DNA of 34,723 nt, from positions 1 to 34,723 of the forward strand of contig JAOUFP010000001.1 in NCBI GenBank assembly GCA_029858145.1. Direction: 5' to 3'. Shown here one piece after another: positions 13,632-13,881 of the stretch. This DNA comes from Nitrospirota bacterium (GTDB lineage Bacteria; Nitrospirota; Thermodesulfovibrionia; Thermodesulfovibrionales; UBA6898). Numbering within the stretch: the stretch's first letter is position 1; each line of letters opens with the position of its first letter. The notes below the pieces were generated by a model. It worked only from the letters and a program-made list of their open reading frames with translations, did no database searches and had not been told where the DNA came from. A program made the translations under genes and the position numbers.

Positions 13632-13648
13632 TATGAAAAAGTTGTGCA
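13632..13648. repeat. IS terminal/subterminal inverted repeat (TATGAAAAAGTTGTGCA)
   Basis: Exact reverse complement of 14986-15002. Confidence 0.85.
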
Positions 13649-13881
13649 AGTGTTTTTTGATCTGTTTTGTCTCCTATCTGCTTACCTTGAGCTTCGAGAT
13701 GAAAAAAGTCTTCATCAAGAGCTCTACAAACAGTTATCTCGGGGGAACCCTATAGTCAGGTATCCCCTCTTTTGGCCATGAATCACCACTATTAAGTCCA
13801 TTAACCACTCATCTATCCGTGCCATCAGCACACATTAATTGTTCGATTACGGTCCCCTAATCATTCAAAGAGCCCTGTCGG
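13649..13881 (-). ncRNA. Candidate IS-encoded guide RNA region (bridge RNA / seekRNA-like), unverified
   Basis: Long non-coding arm downstream of the transposase. Local hairpins at 13698-13716 and 13742-13767. The call comes only from family knowledge and element architecture. Confidence 0.25.

Follow-up and report, generated by a model that had tools for sequence, protein, structure and literature searches.

A compact guide RNA of the bridge/seek kind, probably encoded across and beyond the 3' end of a transposase gene in an IS1111-type element

An IS1111-type element in the window, meaning the whole stretch of 34,723 nucleotides analysed here, very probably encodes a bridge/seek guide RNA of about 112 nt, which overlaps the end of the transposase gene and continues beyond it. 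Its conservation, its compensated helices, its strand specificity and guides that covary with their DNA partners were all observed directly. The whole conserved element occupies 13793-13905 of the minus strand and comprises a P0/P1 module with the target guides, a P2/P3 module with the donor guides and a short variable tail. The earlier note had proposed a guide RNA for the 250-nt arm downstream of the gene, and a conserved, structured and strand-specific RNA-like element that tracks target and donor DNA in relatives is indeed there, but its place differs from the one proposed, taking in only the gene-nearest 89 nt of the arm and then about 24 nt past it (the 3 nt of the stop and about 21 nt of coding sequence). 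The existence of such an RNA was to be expected, because bridge RNAs were predicted by Durrant et al. in 93% of catalogued IS1111 elements (PMC11208160). Apparently the RNA is a new, uncharacterised subfamily of the bridge/seek kind, distributed over many phyla of uncultured organisms.

By its domains, length, motif, long subterminal repeats and downstream arm the element is, as far as its sequence tells, an intact IS1111-type insertion sequence. The transposase open reading frame (13882-14925, minus strand) gives a protein of 347 amino acids, a length within the 330-350 or so that is usual for DEDD transposases of the group, with both IS110-family domains, PF01548 (E 8e-18) and PF02371 (E 7e-25), and residues D7, E55, D93 and D96 are unchanged across 38 relatives. 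GLVPTTYSSG in the translation supplies the C-terminal motif GL-P----S(T)G that marks the IS1111 group (PMC11187229). Perfect 17-bp inverted repeats lie at 14986-15002 on the left and 13632-13648 on the right, within the 7-17 bp range of subterminal repeats with short terminal extensions that is a feature of the group, and relatives conserve a 3-nt extension (AAC, AAT or ACC) between the core and the left repeat and 1 nt between the right repeat and the core. A longer non-coding region downstream of the transposase gene is a further feature of the group, and the asymmetry previously described is confirmed, with 77 nt from the repeat end to the ATG and 250 nt (13632-13881) past the stop. The element is present as a single copy in the 3-Mb genome, a fragmented bin of 512 contigs.

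Read directly on the minus strand, the junctions are TTTATGAAT-GAT-AAT-[ATGAAAAAG ... CTTTTTCATA]-GAT-AATGCAGG. The sequence left once the element is removed is the target GCATTATC|ATTCATAAA, as given in the earlier note, and TTATC (GATAA on the minus strand, extendable to GATAAT) occurs at both junctions. On the left, the host DNA holds the left target and core together (TGAATGAT, 15005-15012), and on the right it holds a core copy GAT followed by the right target AATGCAGG (13621-13631), both on the minus strand.

Protein searches for relatives yielded thousands, a large number of them 60-74% identical and the majority on contigs of 1.2-3 kb, and 160 loci were taken from genome and metagenome collections. 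In relatives at 56-74% protein identity a block at the stop codon is conserved and the remaining arm is not. A covariance model, R1, was built from a first alignment of 44 sequences, and its sole match in the window and the genome is 13793-13886 of the minus strand, at 85.3 bits. Among the relatives R1 has 94 matches, without exception on the strand of the transposase and in nearly every case immediately downstream of its gene. On a 44%-identical Rhizobium plasmid relative it scored 19 bits, and it gave no match on the arm of IS4321, a named IS1111-family member, nor on an IS110-family element of an E. coli plasmid. An identification of that plasmid element as ISEc11 from its flanks failed.

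Aligning relatives in search of covarying stems, a course the earlier note had advised, reveals four helices (P0 to P3) in two modules, with compensatory changes. In the first alignment of 44 sequences, three helices have 94.5% of cells paired as against 25-45% with partners slid, and compensatory changes occur at 9 of 14 pairs. Alignment A5, extended 30 nt upstream and holding 42 sequences, revealed the fourth helix, P0; with all four, 97.4% of cells are paired as against 30-46% slid, and compensatory changes occur at 10 of 23 pairs. None of 500 shuffles matched the observed helix values on four of five measures, and one of 500 did so on the remaining measure, further pair types. RNAalifold finds the same four helices independently and adds two pairs to P0, one of which is AU in 19 and GC in 19 sequences. 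The single-sequence MFE fold of 13793-13906 recovers all four as well, the fold of this 114-nt element being modestly better than those of shuffles (z -1.86). Near-invariant U-G and G-U pairs are compatible with an RNA of the transposase strand only.

All helix strands are given here in minus-strand coordinates. The 5' strand of P0, GCGGUC(G)CCCU, lies at 13895-13905 inside the coding sequence, where it covers the codons A-V-A-L, and pairs with AGGGGACCGU at 13849-13858, as seen in A5, the MFE fold and RNAalifold; the helix is 98.7% paired in 42 sequences with compensatory changes at 4 of 9 pairs. P1 is a hairpin, AGCC-loop-GGCU, at 13871-13883, which starts from the AG of the stop codon and is 99.4% paired, with one compensatory change of CG to UA (in locus L115). 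P2 joins AAUCG (13844-13848) to UGGUU (13803-13807), found in the alignments and the MFE fold, and an AU pair in it becomes GC, GU or CG among relatives. P3 is the hairpin UGUGC-loop-GCACG at 13818-13832, 99% paired, its middle pair being CG in 23 and UA in 18 sequences. From 5' to 3' each module thus has a closing helix, a top-strand guide, a hairpin and a bottom-strand guide. Two further candidates, an outer helix joining UUAGG with the 3' tail and a connection of the tail motif AAG(A/G)CC to P0, proved inconsistent when the alignments were inspected by eye and were dropped.

Complementarity to target and ends, which the earlier note had looked for by eye and missed, is present, and one of the guides is hidden in the last codons of the gene. 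The left target guide (LTG), UGAAUGAU at 13860-13867 of the minus strand, has the same sense as the left flank plus GAT at 15005-15012, with which it is identical over 8 of 8 positions, and is complementary to the bottom strand. The right target guide (RTG), CUCUACAUUAU at 13884-13894 of the minus strand, covers the final sense codons as far as the U of the UAG stop; within it CAUUAU (13884-13889) pairs antisense with the right-flank ATAATG (13625-13630) at six of six contiguous positions. LTG and RTG overlap on AT and jointly specify TGAATGATAATG. Of the two donor guides, also on the minus strand, the right donor guide (RDG) is AUUAAU at 13834-13839, antisense to GATAAT at the element's left end, 15002-15007 (the core GAT and the extension AAT); in the window it makes four Watson-Crick pairs and one G-U with an A-A mismatch at the middle of GAT, and it reads A...U where relatives with the extension AAC read G...C. 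The left donor guide (LDG) has AUAGAU (13811-13816) in the same sense as right-end ATA plus GAT at 13629-13634, 6 of 6, and a 3-nt extension GAG that brings it to 13808-13816. In most relatives this extension equals the first three flank bases, whereas in the window GAG does not match the flank AAT. Four relatives likewise mismatch at the extension, yet their RTG matches perfectly, and because of this the extension is best seen as an auxiliary, handshake-like contact. The three nucleotides after LDG had been considered as the sole determinant of the right target, a candidate rejected on the mismatch in the window and in those four relatives; the antisense guide lies upstream of P1 instead.

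For the relatives, guides were extracted via the covariance-model alignment, each RNA was paired with the DNA at its own element's ends, and the mutual information of RNA columns with DNA positions was computed. In about 90 relatives, variation in the four guides goes hand in hand with variation in the right flank, the left flank, the left end and the right end. LTG, the stretch between P1 and P0, forms a same-sense diagonal with the left flank and GAT at identities of 0.85-0.98; it occurs in 36 distinct versions, and a mean of 5.15 of 7 variable positions match as against 2.63 in shuffled pairings, with 0 of 5000 shuffles as high, although the permutation tests overstate independence because related sequences share ancestry. 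RTG occupies the 6-12 nt just 5' of P1, at the final codons and the stop, and in each element it is antisense to the right flank of that element; the longest match averages 6.4 nt, compared with 3.6 after shuffling (maximum 4.3 in 500 shuffles), and the register relative to P1 shifts by 1-2 nt among subgroups. Within the arm proper no antisense right-target guide was found, and the spacer contains no systematic antisense match to the flank.

The donor guides behave in the same way with fewer independent changes than the target guides. RDG, on the 5' side of the P2/P3 loop, forms an antisense diagonal with GAT and the 3-nt extension at the left end, column 48 being complementary to position -1 in 0.89 and column 49 to position -2 in 0.77; in 13 versions the mean is 2.35 of 3 as against 1.38 shuffled (0 of 5000 as high), with a mismatch at the middle core base in every case. 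LDG, on the 3' side of the loop, forms a same-sense diagonal with the terminal bases of the right end, then GAT and three bases of flank, at identities of 0.86-0.97, and over 10 versions its means are 4.85 of 6 and, for the extension, 1.86 of 3, shuffled pairings giving 3.65 and 1.29 (0 of 5000 as high in either case). The left-end extensions AAC, AAT, ACC, ACG and ATA each have their complement in module 2, and the right ends ATAGAT, ATAGGT, ATGGAA, ATAGAA and ATGAGA recur with the same letters in the RNA. Some relatives (L002 and L005 among them) have GTT, not GAT, at their left junctions while the right junction is still GAT, and in the loci L086 and L092 LTG also reads GUU. These cases hint that the middle core base is not fixed by pairing.

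It is on the donor side that a narrower, seekRNA-like model can be argued, one where the RNA guides the target only, the protein reads the donor ends via the subterminal repeats, and RDG and LDG are conserved scaffold that happens to resemble the ends. The IS1111 paper describes target matches alone in the seekRNA (PMC11187229); RDG has just 4 contiguous pairs and the constant mismatch; and strong conservation of module 2 as well as of the donor ends leaves fewer independent changes there, 13 RDG and 10 LDG versions as compared with 36 for LTG. Yet wherever the ends do vary, module 2 follows, as the extension and right-end variants make plain, and donor-binding nucleotides were reported in predicted IS1111 bridge RNAs by Durrant et al. 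(PMC11208160). We consider the target-only model improbable.

That the conserved block is no guide at all, being instead a DNA site for transposase binding or end recognition, or a plain 3'-UTR stabiliser or terminator, is very improbable. The block does adjoin the gene and lie inside the element, as such a site might, but its pairing is kept by compensatory changes in four helices, its G-U pairs would be mismatches on the other strand, a tracking of flanking host DNA in 36 versions is not expected of it, and the arm has no U-tract or terminator-like site. There is scarcely any chance that the guide is instead made up of the distal hairpins GATGAA-N7-TTCATC (13698-13716) and GGGGA-N16-TCCCC (13742-13767), which are real inverted repeats present in the centroid fold, but whose stretch is absent or unrelated in all compared relatives, one of which has a 131-nt arm, and shows no systematic antisense match to the flank in an arm that folds no better than its shuffles.

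Both hairpins are found exactly where the earlier note had seen them, but they belong to a non-conserved spacer (13649-13792, minus strand) outside the conserved element, and the suggestion that they form part of the guide RNA falls. The spacer ranges from near nothing to about 125 nt in relatives, with no alignable sequence; arm lengths in relatives are 131-250 nt, with no counterpart of the hairpin stretch, and the only parts of the arm common to relatives are the block starting at the stop codon and a stretch of roughly 25 nt adjoining the right end. Taken whole, the 250-nt arm has a fold no better than that of its shuffled versions (z -0.90 for the transposase strand, +0.17 for the opposite one), and the two hairpins are no more than chance. 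A search of Rfam 15 over 13400-15300 on both strands at E up to 10, of the kind that the earlier note had recommended, gave chance matches only and none of relevance.

How a guide RNA of this form would work can be set out by analogy with IS621 and ISEc11. A transcript of the element would carry the RNA, presumably transcribed with the transposase mRNA and then processed. In module 1, P0 would close a loop that presents RTG, antisense to the right target, then P1, then LTG in the sense of the left target and core. In module 2, P2 would close a loop with RDG, antisense to the core and left end, then P3, then LDG in the sense of the right end and core, followed by its three bases. With the DEDD transposase bound, a binding again presumed from IS621 and ISEc11, module 1 would select a site of 12-13 bp, TGAATGATAATG(T), and module 2 would hold the excised circle at the joint of its two ends. 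If catalysis proceeds as in the two analogues, strands would be exchanged in or next to GAT.

A peculiarity of the arrangement is that the last seven or so transposase codons (13884-13905, minus strand) double as the helix strand, over A-V-A-L, and as RTG. Such double duty would account for the protein family's conserved AVAL motif and for the variable tail that comes after it, and since RTG and one strand of P0 lie within the last codons and stop, retargeting would rewrite the variable C-terminal tail of the protein. A placement of P0 and RTG within the coding sequence and stop is not described in the IS1111 and IS621 papers compared. It is conceivable, if rather doubtful, that ribosomes finishing the gene melt the target-binding module and so couple translation to guide folding and loading, with a cis preference.

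The seekRNAs of ISEc11, ISPa11 and ISKpn4 (Siddiquee et al. 2024, PMC11187229) resemble the present RNA in their position on the 3' side of the transposase gene and on its strand, in elements with long subterminal repeats, in their size class of about 80-150 nt, in having relatives naturally retargeted through changes in the guide segments alone, and in a top-strand guide that is 5' of the bottom-strand guide and overlaps it in the target. In contrast to those seekRNAs, the P0 5' strand and the top-strand target guide are here inside the coding sequence and across the stop, and guides for the donor ends are also evident. For IS4321, tblastn aligns only transposase residues 197-335 (the C-terminal 40% or so, at 33% identity) and R1 finds no similarity of RNA sequence or structure. 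On the IS4321 arm R1 thus lends no support to a homology of this RNA with the experimentally studied seekRNAs. The bridge RNA of IS621 (Durrant et al. 2024, PMC11208160; Hiraizumi et al. 2024, PMC11208158) is similar in its target and donor loop modules, in a short core common to donor and target, and in extra bases beside a guide that match the non-cognate partner, as handshake guides do. It differs in being 5' of the gene rather than 3', in its core (CT as against GAT-like here) and in its length (177 nt as against about 112 nt); the order within each loop is reversed here, with the top-strand guide first (PMC11208160), and the handshake-like extension is here on the bottom-strand donor guide. 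ISPpu9 and its downstream small RNA Ssr9 (PMC12288879) offer a likeness by description: the element belongs to the IS110 family, has an RNA gene on the 3' side of its transposase gene and sits in a dispersed short repeat.

What is gained for the known guide-RNA systems is a compact and well-delimited member of about 112 nt and no new principle. Accompanying it are a covariance model and about 90 natural relatives, drawn from uncultured bacteria and archaea of many phyla and holding dozens of natural retargetings, a ready data set from which to derive the pairing rules of the IS1111-type layout, a layout that has received less study than IS621. For the source genome it would explain the element's place, and it predicts the next insertions, at window 188-203 and three other sites.

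The 3-Mb genome was searched with the 16-mer TTTATGAATGATAATG, two mismatches being allowed. The core 13-mer TATGAATGATAAT is present at five of the seven places found, as compared with one for a reversed control. The unoccupied site TGAATGATAATGTGGA at 188-203 of the window (plus strand) matches the target guides better than does the occupied site, with LTG at 8 of 8 and RTG, over UCUACAUUAU, at 10 of 10 including one G-U when paired by hand, and because the full RTG pairs there 10 of 10 it is a predicted free target. Three more unoccupied sites with TATGAATGATAAT, in unrelated flanks, lie on other contigs of the same genome (G000 contigs C207:8715, C396:4482 and C45:2766). Within the target motif AATGATAAT resembles half of a Fur-type operator, and a reading of the motif as a Fur-box half was set aside, only 9 of 19 positions matching the consensus.

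The left flank of the element lies within a dispersed, MITE-like repeat of about 135 bp, with 31 matches in the genome (the query included) at 72-93% identity; two are in the window, at 15003-15140 and 9-145, and 29 elsewhere. Its termini are short inverted repeats, ATTCATA(A/G)A, and the insertion sequence sits about 15 nt inside one end. At the site most copies have TGAAT(A/G/C)ATG and lack 3 nt relative to the occupied copy; the copy at 9-145, which has TGGATAATG at the insertion point, is among them. Since most copies are shorter in this way at the insertion point, only a minority of them would be true targets.

Three Bacillota relatives (about 37% protein identity) carry the same RNA family on the 5' side of the transposase gene, within a long left end (L060:1375-1468, L061:262-353 and L074:1373-1467), and their elements have only about 30 nt after the stop. 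Because the RNA is upstream in these three, a guide RNA seems to have swapped ends within one protein clade, an end change of the sort that Durrant et al. supposed for IS110 versus IS1111 (PMC11208160).

The arm contains no promoter-like or terminator-like site, which would fit an RNA released by cleavage of the transposase transcript, the origin suggested for that of ISEc11 (PMC11187229). The RE block CTTGCACAACTTTTTCATA is conserved in relatives, with a perfect TTGACA in distant ones, and TTGCAC at 13644-13649, at the inner edge of the right inverted repeat, weakly resembles a -35 hexamer. For the window copy, a promoter formed at the junction from that TTGCAC, a spacer of 17 nt and TATGAA would be weak (3 of 6 and 4 of 6 positions) and is not claimed. 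Across the left junction, at 15002-15031 of the minus strand, host TTACCA, an 18-nt spacer and element GATAAT form a promoter-like site, which could drive the transposase and the RNA when the element is integrated.
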